A stretch of 64,000 nt of DNA from Candidatus Multivoradales bacterium (GCA_965212505.1 OZ243123.1:4944313-5008312); one strand, 5' to 3'. Shown: positions 2,781-16,696, numbered from the stretch's first letter. The notes: generated from the sequence alone by a model not told the origin. Translations and numbers: made by a program.

Positions 2781-4208
2781 CTACTCAGGCGGGAGACAGA
2801 CGTTTGTGCCTGGCGAGAAGCCGAAATCCTCGCCGACGTCTTTGGCGCACACCAGATCGTCGACGCAGTCCGAGTCGTTTCTGCAGTTCCCTTGACCGGC
2901 CCCACAGAGACCGCACTCGCGGCAGAACGCCTTGGCTCCCGGCACGACGGTTGTGCAGGGAGCCGCGAAGAACTCGGGGTCGTAGAGGTAGCGAATGCCG
3001 GCGAGATCATCGTCGCCCAGCGAGGCGCCTCGTGGGTCGACCAGACTGGCGCGCATCACCGCGTCGGACAGGAGTTCACTGCGACTGCAAGACGGTGCGC
3101 GGGCACCGCCGCACGAGTGGCCCAGACCCAGAGTGTGCCCGAGCTCGTGGGTGTAGACGTGCTCGAAGAGGGTCTCGGCGATGTCCGGAAACTCCTCGAC
3201 GAGGCAGCCGAGACCGTCGTTCATCACGATGTCCGCTTCGATGATCACGGCAACTCGAACGACGCCCTTCCAGTCTTGGGATTCGCTCGCTGTATTCGAG
3301 AATCCGCCCGCGGCGAGGACGCCGCCTTCGTCGCAGTCGTAGTCGCGGCCGATGAGTTCGTTGAGATCGCTGAAGAGAATGGTGGTCTTGCCGTCGGGGC
3401 GGAGCAGGCCGCCGTTGGCCGAGGTCTTACCGCCGTTGAGCAGCCGAACGGGAGTACCGCTCTGCTTGCGGCTCCAGGCCTGGCGCGCCTTTCGGAAGGC
3501 GACCGCACCGTTTTTGGTCAACCCGGGCTGACCGTCCTGGTGGCGGGACCATTTGAGCTTTCGCCCAGTGTCGAAGCGGAACCAGCGCGACGTACGCCCG
3601 AGGAGGGTGAACTTCGGCTCGATCGCTCTGAGTCGAGGAAGGACGTAGTCGGCCGTTCGCTCGATGCCCTGGCTTCGATCTCGAATCCAGCCTGCAAAGC
3701 GCTCACCGTCCCTCACGTCGGTCGGCTCGGGAGCACCGGCCTTGCGCTTCAGAAAGACGGCTCCCTCCGAGTCGACGAAGGGTCGGTGGAGGGTGCGCTC
3801 GCCGTCGAGTCGTTGCGCGAGGAAGAGCCCCTGATTGAGATGGAGAATCTGGTAGCTGCCATCCGGTCGAGCGGCGAGAAAGAGGAGGTACTCGCGGCCC
3901 GCGATGAGTGGGGGAATTCCGAAGACTCGAGCCTCGGCTCCGCTCGAGGGATCCACTCCGCCGGGAGCCCGCAACACGAGCCGCCCCTCGCGGGCGGCGC
4001 CCTTGAGCACCTCGGTGACGGCGGCGGGGGTATCGGTCGCGATGGCACCTCGGACTCTGTTCGACGAGGAGGCGCCGACGTTGGCCCAGACGATGAGGTC
4101 GGCGCTGTCGACGAGCGCCTCGTCCGAGACGACGACATAGGTCAGAGCCGAAGCGATGCCGGAACCGAGGAAGAGGCAGAGGAAGAGAACTGCGCTAGGA
4201 CGAAACAT
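2781..4208 (-). CDS. Secreted matrixin-like (M10 metzincin) zinc metalloprotease with Cys-rich C-terminal domain
   Basis: Signal peptide MFRPSAVLFLCLFLGSGIASA. Extended zinc-binding motif HELGHTLGLGHS (HExxHxxGxxH+S) and a cysteine-rich tail. Confidence 0.7.
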   Translation of the reverse strand: MFRPSAVLFLCLFLGSGIASALTYVVVSDEALVDSADLIVWANVGASSSNRVRGAIATDTPAAVTEVLKGAAREGRLVLRAPGGVDPSSGAEARVFGIPPLIAGREYLLFLAARPDGSYQILHLNQGLFLAQRLDGERTLHRPFVDSEGAVFLKRKAGAPEPTDVRDGERFAGWIRDRSQGIERTADYVLPRLRAIEPKFTLLGRTSRWFRFDTGRKLKWSRHQDGQPGLTKNGAVAFRKARQAWSRKQSGTPVRLLNGGKTSANGGLLRPDGKTTILFSDLNELIGRDYDCDEGGVLAAGGFSNTASESQDWKGVVRVAVIIEADIVMNDGLGCLVEEFPDIAETLFEHVYTHELGHTLGLGHSCGGARAPSCSRSELLSDAVMRASLVDPRGASLGDDDLAGIRYLYDPEFFAAPCTTVVPGAKAFCRECGLCGAGQGNCRNDSDCVDDLVCAKDVGEDFGFSPGTNVCLPPE

Positions 4209-4217
4209 GACGGACTC

Positions 4218-5531
4218 CTAGTTCTCGATGGGTGTGAGTACGACGGTCGTGAAACGGCCAACCTCGCCGGTGACGGTGACGACGATCTGGCCGCGATCGT
4301 TGAGCGCCAGCGCCTCGAACGCCTGCAGGTCGACGCCGGCCGCGTCGAGAAACGCCTGCACCGGTCGGAGTCCGAAGGCGGGGTCGAAGAGGAAGGGCAC
4401 CGACAGGTTGCTGCCGATGGCCATGTTCCCGAGCACTGCTGAGTTCTCGTTCATGGCCACGAGGTCGAGATCGTCGAAGCCGTCGTGTTCCTGATTCCGG
4501 GCCATCCGCGTGAAACGCCTGGGCTTGACCCTGCGCTCGGTCCCTCCCGGGCGGGTGGGTCGGATGTAGAGGATGTCGCTGCGTCGCTCGCTCTTCTTCG
4601 AGGCGAGCCCGCCGATGTCTCCGTTGTCGGTGAGGAAGGCGGAGAACGCCTGGATCGTCTTGGCGATCTCGAACGTTTCCACTCCGCCGGATGGGGTCCA
4701 GTAGGCGGGCACGAGGAGGTTGTCCTCGGTGAACAGCGAAACCGGCAGCTCGCCTCGGGAGTTGGGCTGACCGACAAAAAGAACGAGTGGGCCGACGTCT
4801 CCGAAGCTCAATATCTCGCCGCTGTCTCTCACGACGAGCGTCTCGAGACGGTTGACGAATCCGCCGAGCGGTAGGGGGCGCTCGGTGCCGAGGATCCGGC
4901 GAAACACGAGATCACCGTTGTCGTTGAACCCCTCCAGGGCGGCCTTCTCCAGCCGCGGGTCGAGAGGGCGAAGGTCTTCCCAGCCGATGTCCGGTGTGTA
5001 GAGGAGGGTCGCCTTACCCTTGCCGCCGAAGACCTGCCCGAGATTGTTCAAGCCGTTGATGATCAGGCGGTTTCCCTGCTCGGGTAGCCCGTTCTCCAAG
5101 TCGCTCAGACCTCCCTCGTCCGAGAAGAGAAAGGCTCCGCTGAGTCTGCCGTTGCTGTTGACGCGCCAGCCAGCGACGTCGCCACGTTCGTTGATGAACA
5201 GGGCGAGGGTCCTCAGGGTCCCCTCCGGATCGAATGTCAACGTTTCGCCGTCTGGCGAATGCCGGAACCCGACGACCTGCCCAAATCGGTTCTGTGCCCG
5301 GCCGGCGACCTGCCCGCTCTCGTTGATGGCCACTCCGGTCACCGTGGGCAGCTCGATGTCGCCAACGGTGACGGAGGGGAGGACCGCCACTTCGTATCTG
5401 GGCACCTTGCCGGCCCGTGCCGAGCCGCCGATCGCTAGACAGCCGATGAGCGCGGCGGATAGAAAAAGGTCTCTCCGACGGGCGGAGCGGTGCGTGTGCG
5501 CGGACTTCTGGTCGGTGAAAGATTCCCTCAT
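4218..5531 (-). CDS. Tat-secreted HAF-family-like extracellular repeat protein
   Basis: Twin-arginine motif SARRRDLFLSAALIGCLAIGG. Start chosen at ATG 5531 (GGGAG upstream); alternative ATG 5567. Seven or more repeats of the type INESGQVAG / INERGDVAGW / LNNLGQVFG / FNDNGDLVF / LNDRGQIVV and a GAFLF motif resemble the HAF repeat. Confidence 0.5.
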   Translation of the reverse strand: MRESFTDQKSAHTHRSARRRDLFLSAALIGCLAIGGSARAGKVPRYEVAVLPSVTVGDIELPTVTGVAINESGQVAGRAQNRFGQVVGFRHSPDGETLTFDPEGTLRTLALFINERGDVAGWRVNSNGRLSGAFLFSDEGGLSDLENGLPEQGNRLIINGLNNLGQVFGGKGKATLLYTPDIGWEDLRPLDPRLEKAALEGFNDNGDLVFRRILGTERPLPLGGFVNRLETLVVRDSGEILSFGDVGPLVLFVGQPNSRGELPVSLFTEDNLLVPAYWTPSGGVETFEIAKTIQAFSAFLTDNGDIGGLASKKSERRSDILYIRPTRPGGTERRVKPRRFTRMARNQEHDGFDDLDLVAMNENSAVLGNMAIGSNLSVPFLFDPAFGLRPVQAFLDAAGVDLQAFEALALNDRGQIVVTVTGEVGRFTTVVLTPIEN

Positions 5532-5594
5532 ATCGTCGTCACTCCCATCTGGTTCAGGTGCTCTCATCTGTACCTAACGGGTGTCGTTCGACCA

Positions 5595-6716
5595 TTGGTT
5601 TGGTCGGCCGTCGCGTCGACTACACTGGCAGCCGCTTTGGATCGGGCCTTTACGCAATTCGTGCTGCAGCTGGCCGACGCCGACGCCGCGCCGACGGTTC
5701 GAGATGTGGAGCGTGTTCTCGAAGCGCTCAAGCGGCTTCTCGTGCGGGAGCTGAGCCGGCGCGGCATTCTGGACAGCTCGCCTTCCTACCTGGGCGTCGT
5801 TGGCGAGTCGTGGGCGGAGGGGGGAGGCCCCGGCGCACTCAGCGAACTCGCCGAGGAGTGCTTCACCTACACCTTCGTCGAGCGACTTCAGACTCTGCGA
5901 GCGCAGGCGCAGGTGAAGCCCGACGTCGAAGGACTGGTGCGATTGAACGTGCGGCACTTCGTCTACGAGCGCCAGCGGCGAAGCGATCCGCTGGGAGCGC
6001 GTGTCTATCTCGCGTTCAAGGGTGCGGTCGAGAGCGCCATCGAGTCGGGGCGCCTGTTCCGACTTTCCGGTGCTGGGTCGCTTTCCAACGAGAACGTACT
6101 CGCCTTCCGGGTTCAGGCACTGACGGTCGCGGACGGTGAGTACATTCGCGAACAGGTCCGTCTCTGGTCACCCAAACTGTTGCCGGCGCTTGTCGTCGCT
6201 TCCGGAAGAGCTTGGACGGCGCTTCTCGGGCGACTGGTCGAGCTCATCTGCGCGCTCGAGGGCGAGGGCGTCGAGGCGTTTCGAGTGGGAGACGCCCTGC
6301 GGGAGTTCAAGTCGTCTGTGCGTGCGCACTGGGCGACGATCGTCGCTGCCGAGCTCGGCGCAACGGACGCCGGCGAGGTCCGCGTCGAGACGGAGGAGTC
6401 GGTGCTGCCCGCGCTCGGTTTTGAAGACCGCCAGGCGTTCGAGGCGCTCCGCCGCGAGGTTCGAGCTGCGCTCGGAGAGCTCGACGTCGACGAGAAGACT
6501 CGTGCCTACCTTCGCGACCTCTGGAGTTTTCTGGCCGACTCCGCCGCCTCGCCAGACCGCGAGGCGAGTCTTTCGCAGCGACGGATGGCGCGCGACGCGG
6601 GGGTCCCGCGGGGGCGTCTACCGGAACTCCTCGCGGTGCTCGCCGATCTGGTCTCTCGAGTTCGGTCGCAGCCGATTTCTCGACGGGGGCCGTTAGCCAT
6701 GGATGGAGATGAGTGA
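5595..6716 (+). CDS. Hypothetical protein, no in-frame ATG start; C-terminal segment resembles a sigma-70 region-4-like HTH
   Basis: GC3-rich frame from about 5583 to 6716. Only TTG/GTG start candidates (5595, 5637, 5661), none with a good RBS. C-terminus …LSQRRMARDAGVPRGRLPELLAVLADLVSRV resembles the EIAxxLGVSxGTVKSRL pattern of sigma region 4. Overlaps the next gene by 14 nt. Confidence 0.4.
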   Translation: MVWSAVASTTLAAALDRAFTQFVLQLADADAAPTVRDVERVLEALKRLLVRELSRRGILDSSPSYLGVVGESWAEGGGPGALSELAEECFTYTFVERLQTLRAQAQVKPDVEGLVRLNVRHFVYERQRRSDPLGARVYLAFKGAVESAIESGRLFRLSGAGSLSNENVLAFRVQALTVADGEYIREQVRLWSPKLLPALVVASGRAWTALLGRLVELICALEGEGVEAFRVGDALREFKSSVRAHWATIVAAELGATDAGEVRVETEESVLPALGFEDRQAFEALRREVRAALGELDVDEKTRAYLRDLWSFLADSAASPDREASLSQRRMARDAGVPRGRLPELLAVLADLVSRVRSQPISRRGPLAMDGDE

Positions 6717-7755
6717 CGTGAACGACTCGGCCGAGAAGTTGCTCCGAGCGAGCGTGACAGCGAGCGACAAGCTCGCCCGCCTGGCCGTGGTCGCTCCAGA
6801 GGTGGGCGATCTCTTCGTGCTCGAGGCAACTCGGGAGCAGCCGGTGCAATGGCTGCTCGTCGACCGGCGCGGGGAGTTGGATCTCGTGGCTCCGGTCGAC
6901 AGCTGCCCGTACCTGTCGACGACGGACGTTCGCGTGGAGGAGTCGACCACGCAGACACCTCTGGTGGCGCGGACCGCTTCCGCGACCTGGATTCCGCGAG
7001 GCTCCCTGACTCGCGACGGATGGTGCGGTCGGCTTGCGAAGGACGGCCTGGATGCTGTCTGCTCGCTGCGCCGAGAGATTGGTGAGCGCTCTGTCGAGTC
7101 GACTCCGCAAGACACGGTCGTGGCGAGCGAGTTGCGCGGATGGATCGAGCGGGTGGTGTCACCCGCATGTGACGCGCTCCCACGGGTCGAAGAGCGGCGC
7201 TCGCCACGTTACGCGCAGATGGCCTCTGCCGCACTGGTGCTCGTGGCGATCGGTCTGACGGGTCTCCTGCTTCGAGAGCGAGGCAGGGTAGAGCGGCTGC
7301 TGGCCGAGCGGGCCGGTTCCGAGAGCGTCGTCGAGTTGGGTGCGCCGAAGGAAGCCTCCGAGGCGCCGCCGCCGACTCGGGCGGCGGCGGAGGCCGTTCG
7401 CGCGGTGCCGTTGGTTCTGCTCACGCCCTGGGAGGCCGAGCGCGGAGGTCCGAGCGCCTTCCGAGCCGCAGCCGAGGAGCCGTCGCTCTTTGTGGCTCTC
7501 CAGCTCGATCCGCTGCGGTTGGTAGACCGCTACACGGTGCAGGTGGAGGAGCTGGCGACCGGGCTGGAGGTTTGGAGCGGTGGCGACTTCCGTCGCGAGG
7601 GTCGACTTCGAATCGACCTTTCGATTCCTGCTTCCTTGGTTCGGGCTGGCGAGTACCGGATTGTTCTCTACCCGGACGACGAGGGCGAGGTAGAGCGCGT
7701 GTCGTTCGGTGAGTATCGGTTCTCGGTGGCAGTCAACGGGTCGCGGGCGCCGTAG
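6703..7755 (+). CDS. Single-pass membrane protein, hypothetical (anti-sigma-like topology)
   Basis: ATG at 6703 overlaps the stop of the preceding gene (ATGGATGGAGATGAGTGA). One predicted TM (RYAQMASAALVLVAIGLTGLLL) near the middle. GC3-rich throughout. The 3' end overlaps the convergent CHAT gene by 88 nt. Confidence 0.45.
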   Translation: MEMSDVNDSAEKLLRASVTASDKLARLAVVAPEVGDLFVLEATREQPVQWLLVDRRGELDLVAPVDSCPYLSTTDVRVEESTTQTPLVARTASATWIPRGSLTRDGWCGRLAKDGLDAVCSLRREIGERSVESTPQDTVVASELRGWIERVVSPACDALPRVEERRSPRYAQMASAALVLVAIGLTGLLLRERGRVERLLAERAGSESVVELGAPKEASEAPPPTRAAAEAVRAVPLVLLTPWEAERGGPSAFRAAAEEPSLFVALQLDPLRLVDRYTVQVEELATGLEVWSGGDFRREGRLRIDLSIPASLVRAGEYRIVLYPDDEGEVERVSFGEYRFSVAVNGSRAP

Positions 7756-10700
7756 AGCTGGAAGGCGGCCCAGTAGTAGGGAGCTGCCGCGCGGTCGCCC
7801 CGTCGGATCAACTCGAGCTGTGCAGCCCGCAGCGCTTCGTCTTTGGGCGAGCCCGCGAGGAGGTGGCGGTAGAAGGCCTCCATCAGCTCGGGTGTGATGC
7901 GGTCGGACACCGACCACAAACTGGCCAGGATCGATCGCGCACCCGCGTACTGGAAGGCGCGGGCGAGCCCGTTCAGTCCATCCGTTCCGGAGTCGTCTCC
8001 CAGGGCGGACCCGCAGGCCGAGAGCACCACCAGCTCCGAGCGCAGACGAAGGCCGTCGAAGATCTCCCAGGTTTGGAGCAGGCCGTTGTCGCCGCCGTCA
8101 TCTCGACTCCGGGGAGGGCTCAAGACGATCGCGGAGTCCAGCGGCCGGTGCTCGTTCAACCGGACGTGGGTGGCGAAGTGCAGCACGCGTGCTTCGCGCA
8201 CCGTGTTCGATCTGGCGCGTTCCTCGGAGGCGTTGGCACCGAGAAGGGTGAGGGTTCGCGCGGCGGGGAACTGCGCCGCAACTCGCTCGACCTCGGAGCG
8301 CGTGTACGGCAGCGACTCCAGATCGTGGTGCGGGGATCGGCCGTCGCGCCGTAAAGAGAACGCAGGATCGCCGAAGGCCACCAGCAGGCTCTGAGTGCCG
8401 GCGGGAGCCTCCGCTGGGAAGTTCGATCTGGCGTTTCTAACGTAGGTCGACCCGGACATGGCGAGATGGATCGGCCGCCACTCCACGAGGTACTGAGGTC
8501 GGCTGTTTTCCACCTCTGGGTTGGCGGGTCGAAGCAGAGCGCCGAGCGGCAAGTACTGGAGCGGTCCGTCTGGAAGTACGAGAATCCGTTCGCCACGAGC
8601 GAGCACCGGCTCCAGGGGCGCAACCAGCTGCGTGTAGAGTTTTCTAGAGAGGCGGTTGAGATCGAGTCGCTGGCGCTCTGCGAAATCGGTGGGGCGGGCG
8701 GAGTCCTGAACCAGCTGTCGCCAGGCTTGGACCTGTTCGCGGAGGCTGCGCTCGGACATATCCACGACGTTGACCTCGAGCCCGCGCCCCTGCTCCCAAG
8801 CGAAGACGATCGTCTCGCCCTCGAAGACCGCAAATGCGAGAAGCGCGGTTCGATCGGGAAGCGAGCGCGCGATCTCGTCGAGCGTCAGAGGCTCCGGGTA
8901 GCGGATCGAAGCCAGACGCGGGGAGTCGCGGCGAATCTCCTCGATCAGTTCGCGACGTTCTCGCGCGAGCTCCTGGAGCCGTGAGGTGAGTTGATCGACC
9001 TGGTGGTCGTCGCTCCCGGCCGAGAGTGATGCCAGCCGGCTCTGCACTCGATCGTACTCGGCAGAAACGCGCCCCCTGGAGCGAGCCAGTTCGACGGACA
9101 GGCCCTGTTCGACGATCGCCTCCCGCTCGGCAATGCGGGCCAGGAAGCTACCGGCACGAAAACGCTCCAGCACGTCGAAGGCCTCTGCGGTACGTCCGGT
9201 GTCGAGGTACCCCAAAAGGAGGTCGCGATAGAGCTCGGCCGCCATGGCTCGAAGGCTGCCCTGTCGAACTCCGGCCAGGCGGCCGGCACTCTCCTCGAGC
9301 AGACGGATGCTGCGCTCGAAGTCGGGGAGCGCACCCTCGGTGGAGCCCGAGTCGCGCTCTAGCCGACCCCTGGCAGAGATGGCGGAGATGTGTTCGTCAG
9401 CTCCGGGAGCCAGCGTAGCGGCTCGCTCGAGAGCCAGCTCGAGCAGGGCGTGGCCCGCTCGGTACCGACCTCGCCGGGACTCGATCTCGGCCAGGCGCAC
9501 GAGGATCTCGCTGATGTCCAACGAACCGGGTGCAACCCTTTCGTAGTGAGAGAGAGCCCTTCCGAGGTAGTCCTCGGCTCTCTCGAGATCGTTACGGTCG
9601 AGGGCCAGTGTGCCGACGTTTGTGGCGACGGCACCCCAGTTGGTCGCCTCGGGAGCCTGCTGTTCATAGATGTCGAGCGCCTTGAGGTAGTGGGACTCGG
9701 CGCTCTCGGAGTCTCCTCGGCTGCGCGCGACGAGGGCCAGGCGGTTCAAGATGAGCGCTGAGAGGTGGGTCTCGCCAGCGCGCTGCTTCTCGAGCACCAG
9801 AGCCTGCTCGAGTAGCTGCTCGGCCTCCTGGAAGTCACCGACACGATGCGCCAGCGACGCCTTGTCGGAGAGGTTCAGGATTGTCCCTCGCCCACCGGGC
9901 TCGTAGCGCTGATTGAGGGCCAGGCTCTCGGAGAGATAGCGTCCGGCTGCGGCGAGGTCGCCGGTACGACTCGCGATGAAGGCGAGATTGCCGAGGACCT
10001 GGGCCCGCGGATGCGGCAGGCTGCCCTGCCAGCCGCTGCGTTCGAGCCGGAGGAAGTGATTCAGCGCGCCTCGAGCTAGATGCTCTGCAGAACGAAGATC
10101 GCCGCGAAAGACCGCGAGAATCGAGCGGTTGTGGCGGAGCGCCCCGACCATGTCTCCGTCCGGGGCGATCTCGATCGCCAGATCGTAGGCTCGTTCGTAG
10201 ACGCCCTCTGCCTCCTCGAGGCGCCCCTGACGTCGGGCGACGACCCCGAGTCTTCGAAGGCTGAGGGCAAGCGCCAGACTGCGCGGCGCTAGCGTCGATC
10301 GGACCTCGATCGCCCGCTCGTAGTCGGCGCGTGCGGCGTCGAGTCGCTCCTTGGCGAGAGCCAGCGAGCCGAGCTCGTGATGGAGGTGGGCGGCGGTGAG
10401 TTGCAAACCCTCTTCGTCGGCGACCGTGAGCGCCTCCCGGTAGGTTGTTTCTGCGTCGCCTAGGTTTGATGACTCGCTGAGAGCCGTGGCCTCGAGGCTC
10501 AGAGCGAGCGCTCGCGAGGCGGGCGAGTCGAGCATTGCCAACGCGCTCTCGAAAGCGTGCTCCGCGCGCTCGCTCTCGCCAGCTTCGAGACCGAGTCGAC
10601 CGAGCTCGAGGTACAACCACGCTCGAGCGGCGCTGCGCTCGCGCTCGTCGCTTGCGATCTCTTCCAACGCGGCCGCCGCCTCGGCGACACGTCCGGAGCG

Positions 10701-11138
10701 CAAGAGCCCTTCGGCTCTCAGGAAGGCGCGGCTCCCTCGCTGCGAGAGCCGCGGAAGCGCTGTGCTGTCCCATCCATCAACTTCGACGTGGAAGCGCACG
10801 GCGTGGCCGCTCCTCCAACCGTTGAGGACGATCGGTCCGGTGGCGGCCCCAGAGAGCTCGAGATGAAGCCAGTCGAGAGGCGATTCAAGTGTGTGGGACA
10901 GCGGACTGTCGGCCGAAGCGTGCTCCCACGAGACGATCAGATCGCCTCGACGAACGCCAGAATCAGCGAGGGAGGTGCCCGGCGACACACGTGTGACGAC
11001 GACGCCTTCGTCGATCCAAGGAGCTGGCGCGCGGGCGACGCTCGCGTAGACCGCCAGCGCGACGGCCGCTCCTAGAGCGGCGAGTTGCGACAGGCCGAGC
11101 CTCGGTGCTCGCCTCTCCTGCGCACTTTCAGGCCCCAT
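7668..11138 (-). CDS. TM-anchored PDZ-like + TPR repeat + CHAT (caspase-like) domain protein, 1156 aa
   Basis: N-terminal hydrophobic anchor LSQLAALGAAVALAVYASVA and a PDZ-like stretch GVVVTRVSPGTSLADSGVRRGDLIV. Long TPR array. C-terminal CHAT domain with His (HFATHVRLN) and Cys (LVVLSACGSALG) dyad and the YYWAAFQLYG end motif. Confidence 0.8.
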   Translation of the reverse strand: MGPESAQERRAPRLGLSQLAALGAAVALAVYASVARAPAPWIDEGVVVTRVSPGTSLADSGVRRGDLIVSWEHASADSPLSHTLESPLDWLHLELSGAATGPIVLNGWRSGHAVRFHVEVDGWDSTALPRLSQRGSRAFLRAEGLLRSGRVAEAAAALEEIASDERERSAARAWLYLELGRLGLEAGESERAEHAFESALAMLDSPASRALALSLEATALSESSNLGDAETTYREALTVADEEGLQLTAAHLHHELGSLALAKERLDAARADYERAIEVRSTLAPRSLALALSLRRLGVVARRQGRLEEAEGVYERAYDLAIEIAPDGDMVGALRHNRSILAVFRGDLRSAEHLARGALNHFLRLERSGWQGSLPHPRAQVLGNLAFIASRTGDLAAAGRYLSESLALNQRYEPGGRGTILNLSDKASLAHRVGDFQEAEQLLEQALVLEKQRAGETHLSALILNRLALVARSRGDSESAESHYLKALDIYEQQAPEATNWGAVATNVGTLALDRNDLERAEDYLGRALSHYERVAPGSLDISEILVRLAEIESRRGRYRAGHALLELALERAATLAPGADEHISAISARGRLERDSGSTEGALPDFERSIRLLEESAGRLAGVRQGSLRAMAAELYRDLLLGYLDTGRTAEAFDVLERFRAGSFLARIAEREAIVEQGLSVELARSRGRVSAEYDRVQSRLASLSAGSDDHQVDQLTSRLQELARERRELIEEIRRDSPRLASIRYPEPLTLDEIARSLPDRTALLAFAVFEGETIVFAWEQGRGLEVNVVDMSERSLREQVQAWRQLVQDSARPTDFAERQRLDLNRLSRKLYTQLVAPLEPVLARGERILVLPDGPLQYLPLGALLRPANPEVENSRPQYLVEWRPIHLAMSGSTYVRNARSNFPAEAPAGTQSLLVAFGDPAFSLRRDGRSPHHDLESLPYTRSEVERVAAQFPAARTLTLLGANASEERARSNTVREARVLHFATHVRLNEHRPLDSAIVLSPPRSRDDGGDNGLLQTWEIFDGLRLRSELVVLSACGSALGDDSGTDGLNGLARAFQYAGARSILASLWSVSDRITPELMEAFYRHLLAGSPKDEALRAAQLELIRRGDRAAAPYYWAAFQLYGARDPLTATENRYSPNDTRSTSPSSSG

Positions 11139-11170: not shown

Positions 11171-12508
11171 TCAGTCGTCGGCCCGCCCAACCAACGCCAG
11201 CACCTCATCGAGCTCCTTGGGTACCGCCGAGCTGAGAATCTCGGGACCGTCCTCAGTAATCAGTACCGTGTCCTCGATGCGAATGTGGAGATCCTCGTCG
11301 ACGATCTCGATGATCGGTTCGACGGCGATCACCATGCCGACTTGGAACGGCAGCGAATAGTCGCCCACGTCGTGTACGGCCATGCCGACAAAATGGCCGG
11401 CGCCGTAGGCCGGCTGATCCTCGAATCCCCATTTGTCGAAGATCTCGCGATTGATGTCGCGCGTCTGCTGACGCGTGGCGCCGGGCTTCATGGCGGCGAT
11501 GATCGCCTTCTGCGCCTCGAGTGTTGCGCGGTAGGCGCGCTCCTGGAGTTCGTCGAACTCGCCCGACACCGGCCAGGTGCGTGTGATGTCCATCGTCTGG
11601 TAGGCGAACGAGGCGCCGTAGTCCATGACGATCAGCTCGCCGTTGGCGAGCTCCTTGCCGTTCGAGTTGTAGTGCCAGATGTTGACGTTTGGCCCGGAGC
11701 CGACGATCGCCGGATAGGCGGCGTGTTCCGCACCGTTTGCGAACATGTGGTGCGAGGCGACCGCCTCGAGCTCGTACTCGTAGCGCCCAGCGCCGGTGAG
11801 CTCGATCGACTTCTGAATCGCCTCGGCGCTGACGCGGCCGTTGTAGCGCAGCACCTCGATTTCGCGCGGCGTCTTGATCATCCGCTGGGCGTCGATCAAC
11901 GGGCTCACGTCGTGCAGCTCGTAGTAGGGATAGCGGAGTCGCATCTGCTCCACGCGCCAGGCGTCCTCGCTCGGTTGCGCACCCCAGGGGTTCACCATTC
12001 GGCGCGCCATGTAGATCGCCGCGTCGCCGCGCGAGTTGTCGATCACGTCGCGCTCCGACATGCGCAGGTAGAGCGGGTGACGACCGCTGGAGCGCCGGCG
12101 CCCCAGGAACTCCTCGAAGTAGTGGGAGCCCTTGATCTCCTCGAACCCCCACCGCTCGGCCGCTCCTTCCTGGTAGAGCCAGTTCCACCCGTCGCGACTC
12201 GCCTCACGTGCAGTCTGCGTCGGCAGGAAGAGCCAGGCCTGACAGCTCGTCGCGTCGATGACGGCGACTGCGTTCAGGTTCTCGTTGCCGGTCAGGTAGA
12301 AGAAGTCGTGATCCTGCCGGTAGCGGAGCCCCGCGAGTGGACTCGTGCCCGCGAAAAGGACGACCGTCGCCTCGTCGGTGATCGCCTCACAGAGCTTCGC
12401 CCGCCGTTCGGAGAACTCCTCGGGCGGGTAGTCGAAGCGGCCGGCGAGGCTCGGGGCGGCAAGCGGGACGAGACAGGCGGCGATCACGAGAAGTTTATGA
12501 ATCTGCAT
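11171..12508 (-). CDS. pepP: Secreted Xaa-Pro aminopeptidase (M24B family)
   Basis: Track ORF trimmed to ATG 12508 (GGAGGA RBS) giving signal peptide MQIHKLLVIAACLVPLAAPSLAG. M24 pita-bread fold motifs (…HGVGMAVHDVG…, …IEDTVLITEDG…). Confidence 0.8.
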   Translation of the reverse strand: MQIHKLLVIAACLVPLAAPSLAGRFDYPPEEFSERRAKLCEAITDEATVVLFAGTSPLAGLRYRQDHDFFYLTGNENLNAVAVIDATSCQAWLFLPTQTAREASRDGWNWLYQEGAAERWGFEEIKGSHYFEEFLGRRRSSGRHPLYLRMSERDVIDNSRGDAAIYMARRMVNPWGAQPSEDAWRVEQMRLRYPYYELHDVSPLIDAQRMIKTPREIEVLRYNGRVSAEAIQKSIELTGAGRYEYELEAVASHHMFANGAEHAAYPAIVGSGPNVNIWHYNSNGKELANGELIVMDYGASFAYQTMDITRTWPVSGEFDELQERAYRATLEAQKAIIAAMKPGATRQQTRDINREIFDKWGFEDQPAYGAGHFVGMAVHDVGDYSLPFQVGMVIAVEPIIEIVDEDLHIRIEDTVLITEDGPEILSSAVPKELDEVLALVGRADD

Positions 12509-12530
12509 CTTGGTTCCTCCGAGGGCAGCG

Positions 12531-14903
12531 TCAGGGGATGTCGGCGACGTTGCCGGTTCTGCAGTCGAAGTCGACTGCCTGCGCAGATCGGGCACACCAG
12601 CCCGCCGTCGCGGTGAAGGTGAACGTGGCCTCGCCAAAGCTGTCCGCGCTCAGAGTTTTCCAGCGTTGTGCGCCGGAGAGGTCCAGCTCGGTACCGGCAC
12701 AGGCTCCGTCTGCGATCTGTGTCGTCCCACCGCTTAGGCCGGCATAGACCGCCGCCGTCCGGTCAGGCCTCAAGTTCGAAAGGTTTGCGACGATCTCTCC
12801 GGGACAGGTGCCCGAGAAGATGAGTTGTGGCAGTGGGTCGAGGACGTAGTCGACCGTCACCACGTGGAAATCGACGTCGGGCATCGTGAGCGTGTTGGTC
12901 GGTCTGGTGGAGCTGTCGTTGTCGGTTCCGGTCCAGCCTCCGATCGCCCAGCCGTTCTGAGGGTCGGCGCCGAAGAACTGGATGAGCTCGCCCGGTACGT
13001 ACTGACGGTCGGGGCAGCCGGCGGAGTTTGCCGGCGTCGCCTGGGGGTTCGCCCCATTGCCGGTCTTCGACAGAGTGAGCGGTTTGCACACCTGGATGTA
13101 GTCGACCGACACCACGTGGGCCTCGGACGGCATGGTGAGCTCGTTGATCTCGGAGGTGGAACTGTCGTCGTCGGTTCCGTTCCACGAGCCGACCCCCCAA
13201 CCGGGAGAGGGGAAGGCGGTCAACGTCAAGACCTCACCTTCTAGATATCGGTTCGCGGTGCACTCCGCGGAGCTGGCCGGCTCGACGAGGGGGTTGGATC
13301 CCTCGCCGCTGTGGTTCGTGCCGAGGAAGTTGCAGACGTCGTCGATCTGCACGACCTTGGTGGTGACACAACTCGGCTCGGAGACGCCCTGAGCAAAACG
13401 GCCGCAGCTCTCCCGAGAGACGTCGATCGTCAGCGACCCGTCTCCCTGGCTGTCGGTCAAGAAGAGGCCGAGCGCTCGGGGACCCGTGACGCCGAACTCG
13501 GTTCCGGAGCAGGGGCCAGAGGGGACCAGAGACTCGCCGGGTTCCAAGCCCTCGAAGATCTTGACCCTCGAGCTGGGAGCGGCGCCACGAGTGGAGAAGA
13601 CGATGGGGCCCGGGCAATGACCCTCCACCGCGAGCACGTCCGCCCCGTTCTCGAACGCGCCCGCATCGCAGGCGCCGTCGTCGCGCAGGAAACCGCGCTG
13701 GTCGGTCGATACTGAACATGGATTGGTGTCGATCGCACTGCTGCCGTCGAGCAGGGCGTGGGTCGAGGTGGGGCCGCCATTGTCTTCGAGGTTGGGGTCG
13801 AGCCCGGTCATGAAGCCCCAGTCGTTGGCGCACGTGCTGTCGTCTTCGAAGTTCGCGCCGCTCGAATCGAGCTCGAGAACGTCGATCCCGCAGTTGCTGT
13901 CGGCGTTGCCGGCGATGATCGAGCTCTCTACCTCCAGGGGGGCAGCGCTGAAGTCCGAGGTCAGGTTGAACAGGCCGCCGCCGACTCCCGTGTCGGCGGT
14001 GTTGTCGGTGATGGTGGTGAATCGAATCGAGTTCGGTAGGTAGTTGCCCGTCAGGAGGTAGAGCCCGCCACCGGCGGTTGTGGCGTGGTTTCCCGAGATG
14101 GTGCTATTGGTGATGGTAAGCCCGCCGACCGCCCGAATGCCGCCGCCGTGGCTCGCGGTGTTGTCGTGGAACGTCGACTCCGCGACGGTTGCGAAACCAG
14201 GTTGGCCGAAGGGATACCAGCCGCCTGTTGTGCTGAGGCCCCCGCCCCTACCCGCAGAGATGTTGCCGGCGAGCGTCGAGGCGACCAGATCCAGGTAGCC
14301 CCCGTAGGCCTTGTAGATACCTCCGCCTCCGCCCGCAGCGTAGTTGTCGAAGAAGCGCGAGTGGGAGACTTCTACCTGTCCATAGCTGAGGTAGCCACCC
14401 TGGCCGATGAAGAGCCCGCCGCCCCTGCGCGCTCGATTGCCGGAGAGGGTGGTGTTGTTGAGAATCACCTCGGCCGACCGGGTGCGCACCGAGATCGCTC
14501 CGCCGTCGCCCGTCGGTAGCGAGCCGCCGGAGAGGGTCACGTTGACGAGTTCGACGCGCCCGTCGAACTCGCTGTCCGGCACCTCCAAGATGCGAAAGTC
14601 GTCCGATGTCGGCTCTCTGCTGATCTCGAACCCGTTGCCAACCAGAGTGATCCCGCTCGTCAGCCGCGGCAGTCCGTTCTGCCCGTCGAAGCTCTCCGTC
14701 AGGACGACGTCGGCGGTCAGGACGACCTCGTCGTTGCCCGAGCCCGCGGGGCAGTCGCCGACCGGCGCATCCTGATTCGCCGCCTCGATCGCGTCGACCA
14801 GCGTGCAATCACCCTCGACGACGATCTGCGTCGGAGTCAGCGGCGCGGCCGCCAGCAGTGCGAAGGCGAGAACCTGGAGGCGCCGCGGCGAAGTCGTCGG
14901 CAT
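12531..14903 (-). CDS. Secreted right-handed parallel beta-helix repeat protein with duplicated C-terminal modules
   Basis: Start trimmed to ATG 14903 (signal peptide MPTTSPRRLQVLAFALLAAAPLTP). Gly/Asn/Thr-rich beta-helix repeats (GGGL…, NTTLSGN, ITNSTISGNHA). Two homologous about 30-aa modules (NGTDDDSSTSEINELTMP…VSVDY and TGTDNDSSTRPTNTLTMP…VTVDY). Confidence 0.65.
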   Translation of the reverse strand: MPTTSPRRLQVLAFALLAAAPLTPTQIVVEGDCTLVDAIEAANQDAPVGDCPAGSGNDEVVLTADVVLTESFDGQNGLPRLTSGITLVGNGFEISREPTSDDFRILEVPDSEFDGRVELVNVTLSGGSLPTGDGGAISVRTRSAEVILNNTTLSGNRARRGGGLFIGQGGYLSYGQVEVSHSRFFDNYAAGGGGGIYKAYGGYLDLVASTLAGNISAGRGGGLSTTGGWYPFGQPGFATVAESTFHDNTASHGGGIRAVGGLTITNSTISGNHATTAGGGLYLLTGNYLPNSIRFTTITDNTADTGVGGGLFNLTSDFSAAPLEVESSIIAGNADSNCGIDVLELDSSGANFEDDSTCANDWGFMTGLDPNLEDNGGPTSTHALLDGSSAIDTNPCSVSTDQRGFLRDDGACDAGAFENGADVLAVEGHCPGPIVFSTRGAAPSSRVKIFEGLEPGESLVPSGPCSGTEFGVTGPRALGLFLTDSQGDGSLTIDVSRESCGRFAQGVSEPSCVTTKVVQIDDVCNFLGTNHSGEGSNPLVEPASSAECTANRYLEGEVLTLTAFPSPGWGVGSWNGTDDDSSTSEINELTMPSEAHVVSVDYIQVCKPLTLSKTGNGANPQATPANSAGCPDRQYVPGELIQFFGADPQNGWAIGGWTGTDNDSSTRPTNTLTMPDVDFHVVTVDYVLDPLPQLIFSGTCPGEIVANLSNLRPDRTAAVYAGLSGGTTQIADGACAGTELDLSGAQRWKTLSADSFGEATFTFTATAGWCARSAQAVDFDCRTGNVADIP

Positions 14904-14923
14904 GGATGACCCTTCGTGCGAGC

Positions 14924-16696
14924 TCATTCTCCAGTGAGAGTTCTCGCCGCCCCCACCGTGCCGCCCTTCGGGTGATGCGCCTTGATGTGAAGGGTGGTGC
15001 CGGCGGCAGCTCGCACGACCCACTCCACGTCACGCTCCGAGTGGCCGCCGATCACGCCGAGGTCGAGTCGCGCCTGGCCGGAGAGCACCTCGACGCCTTT
15101 GCCGCCGACCTTCACGCGCACTGGCGTCGCCCGTCCGTTCGCCGTTCGTACCGCGAGCTCGGTGGGAGAGAAGCCGTCGTTGGCCACCGTCGCCTCGATG
15201 CGGTAGACGTCGCCACCGAGGGCGATGGCTTCGAAGTTTCGAATCTCGAGATCGGGGGTATTGCGCGCCTGCATGAGGACAAACTCGACGTTGCGCTGGA
15301 CCTCCTCGTCCAGGTCCGCCGAGAGTGGGTTGTTCGCCCCGAACTTGCGCCAGCCGCCGATCTCGACGGTGCCCAGTTGTGGGTGTTCGAAGGACTCCCA
15401 CTCCTTGAAGACCGCTCCGCCGAGCTCTTCGTCGTCCCAGCGCAGCCTCTCGTGCTGCTCGATGCGGCCATCACCGTCGTCGTCCTCACCCATCTGGTAG
15501 ATCTCGTTGGCGAACGCCACCACGCCGAAGATCTCGTAGAGCGCGTCGATCGACCCACCGTAGGCGGCGTAGCCGTCGAGACGGCTCGGTCCGCCGTGCA
15601 GGTCGCCCTCCTTGTCGCGCCAGATCTGGCCGCCCTTCTTGTTGCCCGAGCCGCGCGGCCAGTTCCAGTCGTAGACCGACGTTGCCAGGTTGTAGCCGGT
15701 CACCTCGAGGCCGCGCTCGCCGAGCCGTTGATACAGCTCGAGATCGCCTCTCGGTAGCTTCCAGTCGGGTACTGATGGTGGCCGCAAGACGACGCCGCCG
15801 CTCGAATGGAAGTGCTGCGACGCCGCAATGTTCGGGTGTGCCACAGCGAAGTCCATGAGCGCGCGAACCTCGGTCTCGGAGCCAGCAAACGGGCCGTTGC
15901 CGCGCTGTCCGATGAACCAGTTTCCCGGGTAGTTTCGGTTCGGGTCGATGCCCCCGAGACGGTCCTCCTGGTACTCGCCGTCGTCGTCGTTGTCGACTCC
16001 TTCGGTCCACTGCTCGTAGAAGGGGCCGGTGTCGCCGGGCCGGCGCCGACGCATGAGGCGCGAGTCCTCCTCGCTCGCGGTCCAGTTGCCGATCGGCGAC
16101 TCGCGGCGCATGGTGAGCGCCTGGCTGTCGCCGTCGAGGTCCTCCGGTCCGTCCTCGTCGAGCCGCCCGTCGCCGTCGTCGTCCCAGGGCCGCTGCGTCG
16201 AGTCGCGCGGTCGCTCGGGAGTGCGCATGTGGAGCTCCGAGGTGTCGGGGATGACCGCCGGTGCGATGTAGAACGTCTTACGCCGAAGGAGGTCGGCGAT
16301 CTCGGGCTCGTCGGAGGTGAGGAGACGATGGATCACACCCAGCGCCGCCTCGATCGACACCACCTCGTCGGCGTCGACTCCGCCGTCGACCCAGATCGCC
16401 GGCTTCGATTCGGGCTCGCCCGTCGAAGGGTCGGTGATCGTCATCACCCAGAGATCGCGCCCCTGGTAGCTCTTGCCGATCGACTCGAGACTCGCGAGTT
16501 CCGGCCGGTGTTCCGCAGCGTCGCGCAGGAACTGTTCGACCTCGCCGAACTCTCGGTAGCAGTCGAACTCGAGCGCGGGTCCGAACGGGGCGCAGGCGTC
16601 GAAGTAGAGCTTCGGTCCGAGCTCCGAGTGGCTGGTCGCCTGCGCGGGTGCCACGTACAGCACGGCCAAGAGGGCGTAGGGCAGGGCTCGCTCCAT
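14924..16696 (-). CDS. Secreted M14-family zinc carboxypeptidase
   Basis: Signal peptide MERALPYALLAVLYVAPAQA with AAGGAG RBS. M14-like features IWVDGGVDADE and HFHSSGG. Lies 20 nt upstream of the beta-helix gene. Confidence 0.7.
   Translation of the reverse strand: MERALPYALLAVLYVAPAQATSHSELGPKLYFDACAPFGPALEFDCYREFGEVEQFLRDAAEHRPELASLESIGKSYQGRDLWVMTITDPSTGEPESKPAIWVDGGVDADEVVSIEAALGVIHRLLTSDEPEIADLLRRKTFYIAPAVIPDTSELHMRTPERPRDSTQRPWDDDGDGRLDEDGPEDLDGDSQALTMRRESPIGNWTASEEDSRLMRRRRPGDTGPFYEQWTEGVDNDDDGEYQEDRLGGIDPNRNYPGNWFIGQRGNGPFAGSETEVRALMDFAVAHPNIAASQHFHSSGGVVLRPPSVPDWKLPRGDLELYQRLGERGLEVTGYNLATSVYDWNWPRGSGNKKGGQIWRDKEGDLHGGPSRLDGYAAYGGSIDALYEIFGVVAFANEIYQMGEDDDGDGRIEQHERLRWDDEELGGAVFKEWESFEHPQLGTVEIGGWRKFGANNPLSADLDEEVQRNVEFVLMQARNTPDLEIRNFEAIALGGDVYRIEATVANDGFSPTELAVRTANGRATPVRVKVGGKGVEVLSGQARLDLGVIGGHSERDVEWVVRAAAGTTLHIKAHHPKGGTVGAARTLTGE

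Follow-up and report, generated by a model that had tools for sequence, protein, structure and literature searches.

[quoted passage not shown] The MazF-like domain of CalpT stays bound to the sigma factor CalpS, and the genes for the two proteins lie side by side (bioRxiv 10.1101/2024.05.08.593097).

DdvA of Myxococcus xanthus, which works with the ECF sigma factor DdvS, is a transmembrane anti-sigma factor with a periplasmic TPR-CHAT region. It has been proposed that CHAT cuts first and that intramembrane proteolysis follows, and DdvA-like proteins are reported only from Myxococcota and one Comamonas (PMC11506125). In the type III-E Craspase, the TPR-CHAT protease Csx29 cleaves Csx30, freeing CASP-sigma (PMC10028731). 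IutY (ECF243) is a sigma factor fused to a membrane anti-sigma factor and is freed by proteolysis (PMC8999054).

The locus described here lies in a 64,000-nucleotide stretch of DNA, referred to as the window. Its core is made up of two genes, A and B, both genuine and conserved, which form an obligate pair, adjacent or fused. The A-B module is found in Acidobacteria and looks like a previously uncharacterised form of sigma/anti-sigma signalling gated by a protease. The main reading, with a probability of roughly 0.4, is that A-B regulates transcription as a module of the sigma/anti-sigma type, tethered to the membrane and gated by a protease. The features of the locus are the following.

4218..5567, minus strand: HAF-repeat secreted protein, divergent upstream neighbour (NCBIfam HAF_rpt, 8.8e-6)
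5575..5599, plus strand: promoter-like bipartite motif TAACGGGTGTCGTTCGACCATTGGT, found by regex and PWM
5637..6716, plus strand: gene A, TTG start, 359 aa; cytoplasmic, all-helical, with a sigma-70-like predicted fold
6423..6668, plus strand: C-terminal four-helix domain of A, predicted by AF2
6576-6668, plus strand: predicted HTH of A (AF2), its last two helices, peptide SQRRMARDAGVPRGRLPELLAVLADLVSRVRS
6671..6695, minus strand: the promoter-like motif again, inverted, TAACGGCCCCCGTCGAGAAATCGGC, within the last 15 codons of A
6703..7755, plus strand: gene B, 350 aa, single-pass membrane protein
6799..7086, plus strand: cytoplasmic MazF/PemK/CcdB-fold domain of B, aa ~33-128, from Foldseek
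7219..7272, plus strand: transmembrane helix of B, MASAALVLVAIGLTGLLL, aa 173-190, inside the AF2 helix 168-205
7411..7734, plus strand: extracytoplasmic beta-sandwich (Ig-like) of B, aa 237-344, eight predicted strands
7668..11138, minus strand: TPR-CHAT protein, convergent partner gene, 1156 aa (Pfam CHAT 2.5e-66, TPR_12 8.4e-40)

The pair diverges from the HAF-repeat gene, which is followed in its operon by a matrixin-like gene, and converges on the TPR-CHAT gene, as the initial annotation had it. The 3' ends of B and the TPR-CHAT gene share 88 nt. B begins on an ATG within the last codons of A, also as described earlier, either at the annotated start 6709 (348 aa) or at 6703, and overlaps the stop of A by 8 or 14 nt, respectively. 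The two had been called an ATG-less gene pair, a description that fits A, which lacks an ATG start, and does not fit B.

The open reading frame of A spans 5490-6716 on the plus strand. Its only in-frame ATGs lie at 6585 and 6699, 44 and 5 codons ahead of the stop, in line with the earlier remark that A lacks an ATG until near its end. The gene had been placed at 5595-6716; the frame and the stop hold, and the start is revised. TTG 5637 is more likely than TTG 5595, judging from the sequence, because it puts a conserved "FT" motif at residue 5, where it most often lies among family members (56/140), and because TTG 5595 falls within the conserved promoter-like motif at 5575-5599. The source annotation (protein P0001) begins at GTG 5661 and loses the FT motif. 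TTG is the sole possible in-frame start in about 20 related loci.

The family of A comprises at least 831 clusters, counted as representatives at 50% identity with a search threshold of E<=1e-3, and is mainly found in Thermoanaerobaculia. B comes after A in the same orientation in 54 of the 56 related loci with enough downstream DNA, and in 10 of these the two are a single ORF. Fused A-B polypeptides make up 44 of 155 family proteins. The cassettes are present in several paralogous copies per genome, adjoining ECF and kinase signalling genes.

A has no match in Pfam, NCBIfam, or PADLOC. Its AF2 model, built from only 7 sequences, has a pLDDT of 79.9 and a pTM of 0.60. A disordered acidic linker precedes the C-terminal domain, which is composed of helices 277-295, 300-318, 328-335, and 339-358 (numbering from 5595; pLDDT 74-93). 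The C-terminal peptide that had been likened to the HTH of sigma-70 region 4 is present and forms the last two of these helices. A C-terminal HTH is predicted, and its assignment to region 4 finds no match to the Sigma70_r4 profile.

Sigma factors are the best Foldseek matches of A in the PDB, led by sigma32 (E 0.16) and SigD (E 0.18), with SigH, sigmaA, sigmaS, SigL, RpoE, BldN, and SigI also among them. In BFVD, a phage sigma-E is on top (E 0.035, probability 0.91), and sigma-70 and SigK are also matched. These alignments are colinear over 190-350 columns and weak (E 0.035-0.2, global TM <=0.32). The structural comparison proposed for A ranks sigma factors first in both libraries, always at E > 0.03. 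The modelled fold of A looks most like sigma-70 proteins; A as a sigma factor is unproven.

At the sequence level, Sigma70 Pfam models match neither A nor 101 relatives, even at E<=10, which agrees with the earlier statements, taken at the level of sequence, that A lacks a clear region 2 and is region-4-like; A thus has no match to PF04542 or to PF04545/PF08281/PF07638. By hhalign, the A profile reaches a probability of 1.6% against 32 PF07638 ECF sigma factors and 0.2% against RpoE, and a PDB sequence-profile search with A returned no sigma factor among its matches. That no sequence-profile method ties A to sigma-70 region 2 or 4 counts against the main reading.

These profile results also bear on the idea of A as an ordinary transcription factor, one that binds DNA but not RNA polymerase. 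A GntR/IclR-like HTH would then sit on a large helical sensor domain, B would tether or inhibit A at the membrane, and the resemblance to sigma factors would be a by-product of helical content. The signals from sequence point only to winged-helix families: among A relatives there are weak Pfam matches to HTH_IclR (1.6e-5), HTH_24, Crp, GntR, and MarR, not to Sigma70_r4, and the HTH of A matches a GntR HTH in the PDB (sequence profile, E 0.28). The family consensus LPSxRxLAxxLGIPRxRL is GntR-HTH-like by eye. However, A ends after the recognition helix and so has no beta-wing. The motif upstream of A lacks symmetry and keeps a 17-nt spacer, which does not resemble the dyad operators that dimeric HTH factors use, and the sigma factors top the Foldseek lists of two libraries with colinear, full-length alignments. 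An ordinary HTH factor is considered improbable.

B had been described as a protein with one central transmembrane helix and no recognisable domain. The hydrophobic helix at aa 173-190 (nt 7219-7272) is indeed its only one and is conserved across the family alignment. Recognisable domains are missing at the sequence level but not at the fold level, where the N-terminal domain has a MazF/PemK/CcdB fold. With the AF2 model (pLDDT 73.3), this domain retrieves dozens of MazF chains from the PDB by Foldseek, with a best E of 2e-4 and a probability of 1.0; target-normalised TM is 0.6-0.76 and rmsd 2.6-4 Å over 105-120 aligned columns. A motif (V/I)P-x-(T/D)-T-Q, seen by eye, is a further likeness to these type II toxins. 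A profile of B-like proteins found 33 relatives in Acidobacteriota/Thermoanaerobaculia.

The N-terminus of B is inferred to lie inside, since there is no signal peptide and the fusions carry the cytoplasmic A at their N-terminus. B thus shows the layout of a membrane anti-sigma factor, with one transmembrane helix, an inner N-terminus, and an outer domain; its place next to a sigma factor presumes A or an ECF sigma as partner. The modelled N-terminal domain is a MazF-type beta-barrel and not a helical anti-sigma domain, and B has no match to zf-HC2 or to an RskA-type N-terminal domain. RskA_C is matched once, at E 0.54, in one of the 33 relatives. The outer domain, which is preceded by a stalk, has a weak profile similarity to CopC (E 1.4), single relatives have weak matches to MG2, FlgD_ig, and CBM_48 there, and a C-terminal motif, G-x-Y-R-(L/I), is conserved.

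The MazF fold would also suit a toxin-antitoxin or defence module in which the MazF-like domain of B acts as an RNase toxin, A serves as HTH antitoxin and autorepressor, and CHAT is the trigger that destroys A. As in type II toxin-antitoxin operons, the HTH gene comes first and the next start overlaps its stop, and CHAT proteases work in defence systems, e.g., Craspase (PMC10028731). However, neither B nor its 33 relatives match the PemK/MazF profile (PF02452), and hhalign of B against E. coli MazF gave no match. By eye, in a mapping made by sequence and not by structure, the Arg29 loop is absent and an invariant Asp stands opposite Thr52. The catalytic Arg and Thr are thus apparently missing, and the domain is probably not a nuclease. 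Unlike MazF, PemK, and CcdB, B is membrane-anchored, carries a large outer domain, and has no MazE-like partner. A and B are often fused, some fusions (P0005, P0042, and P0146) are without the MazF-like domain, and paralogous cassettes adjoin signalling genes. PADLOC matches neither A, B, nor a fused relative, and assigns only a generic TPR model to the CHAT protein. A toxin-antitoxin or defence role is very unlikely.

The promoter-like motif has the family consensus TAAC(G/C)G-N15-(T)TGGC (TAAC-N17-TGGC), resembles the -35/-10 elements of ECF promoters, and ends 37 nt ahead of TTG 5637. Its regex is found in 32 of 63 non-redundant upstream regions of A; shuffled sequences give 1.4 and the reverse complement gives 2. 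Promoters of the sigma-70 type were not found between 5300 and 8000. The two best PWM matches of the window flank A: the upstream motif scores 15.9, and the antisense copy at the 3' end of A scores 16.2, the best of all. This antisense element is present in 11 loci at a score >=16 and in about 20 at >=8.8. Its reading frame differs between the window and locus L052, yet the element is kept. Rare codons are fixed at the site, with AAT in 12/12 compared with 24% overall and GTT in 17/17 compared with 11% overall. By these sequence measures, the copy is under nucleotide-level constraint, and it may serve as an antisense promoter or as a second binding site.

Genomic neighbours were counted in the 33 fully flanked loci. 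Within 10 kb of A, 22 of these encode a TPR-CHAT protease, 21 a PF07638 ECF sigma factor, and 31 at least one of the two. The pair had been suggested to regulate one of the two flanking secreted-protease operons. The link to CHAT is conserved, whereas the HAF/matrixin operon has no link to A-B in other genomes; the HAF gene is not conserved beside the pair, and the divergent neighbour in related loci is a secreted protein of ~170 aa instead.

Roughly two thirds of the related loci carry a bona fide ECF sigma, usually beside a Ser/Thr kinase, so the partner of B could be the ECF and not A. On this explanation, A-B would serve as accessory regulator to the PF07638 ECF/Ser-Thr-kinase pair beside it and not itself be a sigma/anti-sigma pair. 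The MazF-like domain of B would sequester the ECF, in the manner of CalpT with CalpS, and A would be a sigma-like decoy, a partner-switching component (as PhyR), or an adaptor. Through the TAAC-N17-TGGC motif, as promoter at the head of an A-B-(CHAT)-ECF-kinase operon, the ECF would autoregulate. ECF sigma factors commonly autoregulate, and at locus L058 the motif heads an operon whose first gene is an ECF. In at least 13 loci the ECF gene is the next one after B, in about 10 others it comes after B-CHAT-C25-like peptidase, and a TPR Ser/Thr kinase follows it in 6 of 7 loci checked. Kinase-linked ECF groups have no known anti-sigma factor (PMC8999054).

However, the window has no PF07638 ECF in its 64 kb, and A and B stay together in the one third of loci that lack an ECF within 10 kb. 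Strict pairing and frequent fusion indicate that A is the constant partner of B, and a decoy fused to its own target would be hard to regulate. The ECF-accessory role is somewhat unlikely, and a true ECF, often directly after B, as possible partner of B and reader of the motif, weighs against the main reading.

In that main reading, of a membrane-tethered module gated by a protease, the MazF-like domain of B would hold A at the membrane, by analogy with the MazF-like part of CalpT that holds CalpS. The CHAT protein of the window has a hydrophobic N-terminal signal/anchor segment, followed by TPR repeats and a caspase-like CHAT protease domain with the His/Cys dyad motifs HFATH at aa 987 and LSACGS at aa 1039. 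Given this signal/anchor, it is likely located outside the cytoplasm. It would sense a signal through its TPR/PDZ-like part and cut the outer region of B, or a partner of B. B would then be degraded and A released to act on DNA as an alternative sigma-like subunit or a plain HTH factor. Targets of A would include TAAC-N17-TGGC sites, e.g., its own promoter, and the weak TTG start and the antisense motif copy would keep the amount of A below that of B. About half of the cassette CHAT proteins have no N-terminal hydrophobic segment, so extracellular cleavage cannot be a general rule. The fusions without a MazF-like domain also count against this mechanism.

The sigma/anti-sigma idea first proposed for the pair is partly supported: its layout and its logic stand up, given the pairing, the HTH, the sigma-like structural matches of A, the topology of B, the MazF-like precedent, and the conserved link to CHAT; the sigma identity of A is the part left unproven. 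A bolder and rather doubtful version takes A as a large sequence-orphan branch of sigma-70-like specificity factors, held at the membrane by a MazF-fold anti-sigma factor B, freed by TPR-CHAT, and reading TAAC-N17-TGGC promoters. If true, this branch would span over 800 clusters at 50% identity, its members being proteins of ~360 aa that contain sigma-2/3/4-like domains. They would often be one fused chain with B and would also read a self-limiting promoter on the antisense strand of their own gene.

Like CalpL-CalpT-CalpS, the locus combines a protease, a MazF-like protein, and a sigma-like neighbour (B beside A, often with an ECF), a likeness of fold and layout. CalpT is soluble and contains DUF2080, whereas B is in the membrane with an outer Ig-like domain, and neither B nor its 33 relatives match DUF2080. 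The protease at A-B is a TPR-CHAT protein and not a SAVED-Lon, and no CRISPR or cyclic-nucleotide link was noticed.

DdvA-DdvS shares with the locus an extracytoplasmic TPR-CHAT that is linked to an anti-sigma-type protein spanning the membrane once and to a transcription factor in the cytoplasm. In DdvA, the zinc anti-sigma domain, transmembrane helix, and TPR-CHAT are in one polypeptide; at A-B, CHAT is separate, with a short segment before its signal/anchor, and B contains neither TPR nor CHAT. B is also without a zinc anti-sigma domain, A is no recognisable ECF sigma, and the family is mainly found in Thermoanaerobaculia.

As in Craspase, a TPR-CHAT gene is linked in the genome with those of a sigma-like protein and of a candidate sigma-binding protein. 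Unlike Craspase, the system includes the membrane protein B; no gRAMP/Cas7-11 gene was noticed in passing in the contexts examined, and Csx30 is absent from the Foldseek PDB match lists of A and B.

IutY is a clear ECF sigma by sequence, which A is not, and in the window A and B are two genes. The fused members of the family resemble IutY in that a single polypeptide joins a cytoplasmic regulator to an outer domain through a transmembrane helix, and such chains, as IutY, would need proteolysis for release.

Gene A (plus strand) encodes a helix-turn-helix (HTH) protein, and gene B, directly downstream, encodes a single-pass membrane protein. The window has a G+C content of ~66% and holds the pair in the following setting.

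2781-4208, minus strand: matrixin-like protein, upstream of A
4218-5567, minus strand: HAF-repeat protein, upstream of A
5490-6716, plus strand: open reading frame of gene A, the same open frame as in the initial annotation
6703-7755, plus strand: open reading frame of gene B, the next after A
7668-11138, minus strand: TPR-CHAT protein of 1156 aa, convergent and downstream; its N-terminal segment is hydrophobic, and it has TPR repeats as well as a CHAT domain (2.5e-66 to Pfam CHAT)

A and B are real genes of a large, unannotated family, and neither matches a model in Pfam, NCBIfam, or PADLOC. A word-indexed search returned just 6 relatives of A (35-39% identity). An exhaustive profile search returned 831 cluster representatives at E<=1e-3 and 482 at E<=1e-30. 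Using an alignment of 11 members that have an HDPLG motif in common, a genome scan located 58 A loci, mostly in Thermoanaerobaculia MAGs, with a few in 'Ca. Multivoradales', one in Planctomycetia, and one in a 'Deltaproteobacteria' MAG. Several of these genomes carry more than one copy of A. The family protein P0041 (742 aa) is a tandem A-A protein, and at two related loci from other genomes, L016 and L024, the A-B cassette is present twice, the two copies facing opposite ways. Both observations point to local duplication of the module.

The pair was originally described as lacking ATG starts. This holds for A, whose in-frame ATGs lie at 6585 and 6699 only; B starts with an ATG (6703 or 6709) within the last codons of A. 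Candidate starts of A are GTG 5490/5496, TTG 5595, TTG 5637, and GTG 5661. The start first proposed, TTG 5595, falls within a promoter-like motif and was rejected. Relatives of A share an N-terminal FT(D/E) motif that is lost with the annotated start, GTG 5661 (source-record protein P0001). The Phe of this motif is residue 5 in 56 of 140 members, and TTG 5637 places it at exactly residue 5 (MDRAFTQ), supporting this codon as the start. At ~20 genomic loci, TTG is the sole in-frame start upstream of the FT motif, so a weak TTG start is a trait of the family and not peculiar to the genome of the window. Such starts seem to be missed systematically by annotation.

A and B form an obligate pair. 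HMMs for A, B, CHAT, and the cassette ECF sigma were run over the six-frame open reading frames of all loci. At 54 of the 56 loci with enough downstream DNA, B lies on the same strand as A and no more than 600 nt after it, and at 10 of those 54 a single open reading frame holds both. Full A-B fusions of 680-830 aa make up 44 of 155 family proteins. The idea that homologues of A and B might never be adjacent is clearly contradicted by these counts. Three more proteins (P0005, P0042, and P0146) have A fused to a transmembrane (TM) helix and beta-sandwich without the N-terminal domain of B. At locus L005 (4138-5979), A is fused to the TM and outer beta-sandwich without a MazF-like domain, and an ECF sigma gene overlaps the stop codon.

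In the AlphaFold2 model of A (7 input sequences; pLDDT 79.9, pTM 0.60), the protein is helical apart from one small beta element. An acidic, disordered linker (aa 257-277) precedes a four-helix domain at the C-terminus, whose final two helices carry the peptide initially likened to sigma-70 region 4. An HTH at the C-terminus of A is thus well supported. Foldseek comparison with the PDB gives nothing below E 1e-3, and sigma-70 proteins top and dominate the list: sigma32 (E 0.16), SigD (0.18), then SigH, sigmaA, sigmaS, SigL, RpoE, BldN, and SigI. These alignments are colinear over 180-400 columns. The independent BFVD library agrees: a phage sigma-E factor ranks first (E 0.035, probability 0.91), and further sigma factors are found at ranks 3, 11, 13, 14, and 20.

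All sequence comparisons with sigma factors were negative. Sigma70 models matched 0 of 101 A relatives, and hhalign of A was null against both ECF sets (three from cassettes and 32 from the fetched loci) and against E. coli RpoE. Winged-helix families gave sporadic weak matches among the same 101 relatives (best, HTH_IclR, 1.6e-5), and the A profile against PDB sequences gave only a non-significant GntR HTH at E 0.28. These matches would suit a plain HTH factor, a reading that is unlikely beside the sigma factors leading both structural lists. A sigma-like fold is the best reading of the model; it is unproven, and membership of A in the sigma-70 family is not established.

B was originally thought to have no recognisable domain. 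A search with B alone found no relative besides B itself, and a profile built from genes downstream of A relatives gathered 33 members, from Acidobacteriota/Thermoanaerobaculia where the source names an organism. The structure model built from these 33 sequences (pLDDT 73.3) opens with a helix, followed by a beta-barrel plus helix at aa ~33-128 and by more helices. A long TM helix, with its hydrophobic core at aa 173-190, comes next, and a disordered stretch separates it from a beta-sandwich of eight strands. In a Foldseek search, dozens of MazF/PemK structures match the N-terminal domain, the best at E 2e-4 with probability 1.0 (target-normalised TM 0.6-0.76, rmsd 2.6-4 A); the earlier view holds for the sequence but not for the fold. 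Sequence profiles fail to detect this likeness, and hhalign of the domain against E. coli MazF was null. The C-terminal domain has faint Ig-like similarity to CopC, MG2, and FlgD_ig, and the only match of the B profile to PDB sequences was a non-significant one to CopC. Because B has no signal peptide and the fusions have A at the N-terminus, its topology follows as N-in, C-out.

A MazF fold next to an HTH protein could also describe a toxin-antitoxin or defence module. In a by-eye alignment, the loop with the MazF catalytic Arg29 is absent from B and Thr52 is replaced by an invariant Asp (VPCTTQ vs (I/V)PADTQ). B is therefore expected to have no nuclease activity, as far as a residue mapping inferred by eye, not from a structure-based alignment, can indicate. 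Such a module is very improbable here.

The pair belongs to a wider cassette. Of the 33 loci with ~10 kb on both sides, 22 have a CHAT gene within 10 kb, 21 have a PF07638-type ECF sigma, and 31 have at least one of the two. Common gene orders are A-B-ECF-kinase, A-B-(TPR-CHAT)-(C25-like peptidase)-ECF-kinase, and CHAT-A-B. At 6 of 7 loci checked, the ECF is followed by a Ser/Thr kinase gene, whose product in most cases has TPR repeats. At L009 (12156-13577) and L010 (12382-13818), a ~475-aa protein with a C-terminal Peptidase_C25 (gingipain-like) match of 4e-7 lies between the TPR-CHAT and ECF sigma genes, a second caspase-fold protease in the cassette.

The window keeps the A-B-CHAT core with CHAT convergent, and an HMM scan of its 64 kb found no PF07638-type ECF. 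B and the CHAT gene converge and share 88 nt at their 3' ends (7668-7755). The CHAT HMM match stops at 7734, and the last ~22 codons of the gene may be a non-conserved tail. The CHAT protein keeps its His and Cys motifs and should sit outside the cytoplasm because of its N-terminal signal/anchor. By a simple hydropathy test, about half of the cassette CHAT proteins have no N-terminal hydrophobic segment. Beyond the CHAT gene (11171-16696, minus strand) lies a secreted/peptidase run of M24 aminopeptidase P, a beta-helix/PMP-repeat protein, and M14 carboxypeptidase; other genomes showed no link between this run and the A-B module. In one subgroup, the conserved divergent neighbour of A is a secreted protein of ~170 aa whose end is pre-peptidase-C-terminal-like (GxYxLxI/V); the HAF-repeat and matrixin-like genes occupy its position in the window.

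L001, 9283-9807, minus strand: ~170-aa secreted protein
L006, 117-617, minus strand: ~170-aa secreted protein
L007, 6054-6575, minus strand: ~170-aa secreted protein
L010, 6083-6595, minus strand: ~170-aa secreted protein

Upstream of A is a bipartite, asymmetric motif of 25 nt in total, with consensus TAAC(G/C)G-N15-(T)TGGC. It is present in 32 of 63 non-redundant A upstream regions (1.4 in shuffles, 2 for the reverse complement) and ends 27-50 nt before the start codon. The motif has the 'AAC' block and 17-nt spacing of ECF-type promoters. A sigma-54 reading of the TGGC block was rejected, there being no TTGC at the -12 position. No sigma-70-type promoter was found upstream of A and no Rfam family at the locus. 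At ten related loci, another conserved element, TGTGAT-N2-AAT(A/G)G, follows the motif at ~9-14 nt upstream of the TTG/GTG start of A; it may serve as a translation signal or as an extended -10-like element. In a PWM scan of the whole window, the two best copies of the 25-nt motif flank A in inverted orientation, and the rest are at noise level.

5575-5599, plus strand: motif upstream of A, score 15.9
6671-6695, minus strand: antisense copy at the 3' end of A, score 16.2; also in L013, L017, L022, L025, L027, L029, L032, L034, L036, L052, L059, and L067
L015, L014, L016, L006, L001, L013, L019, L024, L029, and L064: TGTGAT-N2-AAT(A/G)G element, missing from the window

The antisense copy is embedded in the A coding sequence at 11 loci with a score of at least 16 and ~20 with at least 8.8. 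It usually encodes ANSGKxAV. Rare codons are fixed there (AAT in 12/12, GTT in 17/17); in the rest of the A genes their shares are 24% and 11%. GTT is always followed by the base A. In the window and L052, the DNA motif is preserved in other reading frames. The pattern indicates nucleotide-level constraint. The two copies share only two short end blocks and no long identical repeat, so an invertible element (inverton) was rejected, and no recombinase occurs in the inspected gene lists. Long-range RNA pairing of the copies is unlikely for the same reason. Most simply, A would be read from a sense promoter and, in the opposite direction, from an antisense one, or the antisense copy would be another binding site; the copy at 6671-6695 is a possible antisense promoter.

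Single further copies precede an ECF gene (L058) and a TTG-start open reading frame with CHAT only (L060). In L060, the motif lies at 8361-8384, and the frame, 25 nt downstream, encodes a 231-aa protein with a CHAT domain alone. A and the PF07638 ECF are both candidate readers of the motif. The main rival account builds on the ECF: it would be the true partner of B, A would be a sigma-like decoy or adaptor, and the motif would be the autoregulated promoter of the ECF. The motif copy at L058 fits this account, as does the ECF at 21 of 33 loci; the motif in the window stands with no such gene in 64 kb. The account is judged rather doubtful.

The initial annotation was largely correct, with the start of A now corrected and folds assigned to A and B. 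Its sigma/anti-sigma interpretation is partly supported: pairing, topology, the protease link, and structural hints speak for it, but A fails all sigma-70 sequence tests and a bona fide ECF sigma competes. The A-B family and cassette appear undescribed, with no matching model in Pfam, NCBIfam, or PADLOC and no paper on them in the literature searches. Should A prove to be a true sigma, its family is one that every sequence-based sigma census has overlooked. Otherwise, the kinase-linked ECF sigmas, which have no known anti-sigma (PMC8999054), still have in the pair a widespread partner that is unannotated. Defining the family would improve the annotation of hundreds of 'hypothetical' genes and correct their start calls, because TTG starts are missed by annotation.

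The release of sigma factors by proteases has recently come up as a theme of signalling when bacteria respond to stress or viruses (CalpL/T/S, Craspase-Csx30, and DdvA/S). The closest characterised systems to the cassette are all of this kind. In CalpL-CalpT-CalpS, the MazF-like domain of the anti-sigma CalpT stays on the sigma until degraded (bioRxiv 10.1101/2024.05.08.593097). In DdvA-DdvS, the anti-sigma DdvA crosses the membrane once and carries a TPR-CHAT in the periplasm; it has been proposed to cleave itself before RseP acts (PMC11506125). Craspase-Csx30-CASP-sigma is a further protease-released system (PMC10028731), and IutY is a sigma fused to its own membrane anti-sigma (PMC8999054). 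The combination of parts in the cassette favours, at a probability of roughly 40%, a model in which A is a tethered regulator. B would keep A membrane-bound until B is proteolysed in a CHAT-dependent way, and A, once freed, would act on transcription. The antisense element, together with the weak start codon TTG, would hold the amount of A below that of B. The cassette would be a variant of protease-gated sigma/anti-sigma signalling, in an apparently CRISPR-free setting, with several copies per genome and in a poorly studied phylum. Its TPR-CHAT protein is separate, its membrane protein has a MazF-fold inner domain, and its sigma-like HTH protein adjoins or is fused to that protein. It unites parts of CalpL/T/S, Craspase-Csx30, and DdvA/S: the protease is of the CHAT type, the holder has a MazF fold, and the anchor is in the membrane.
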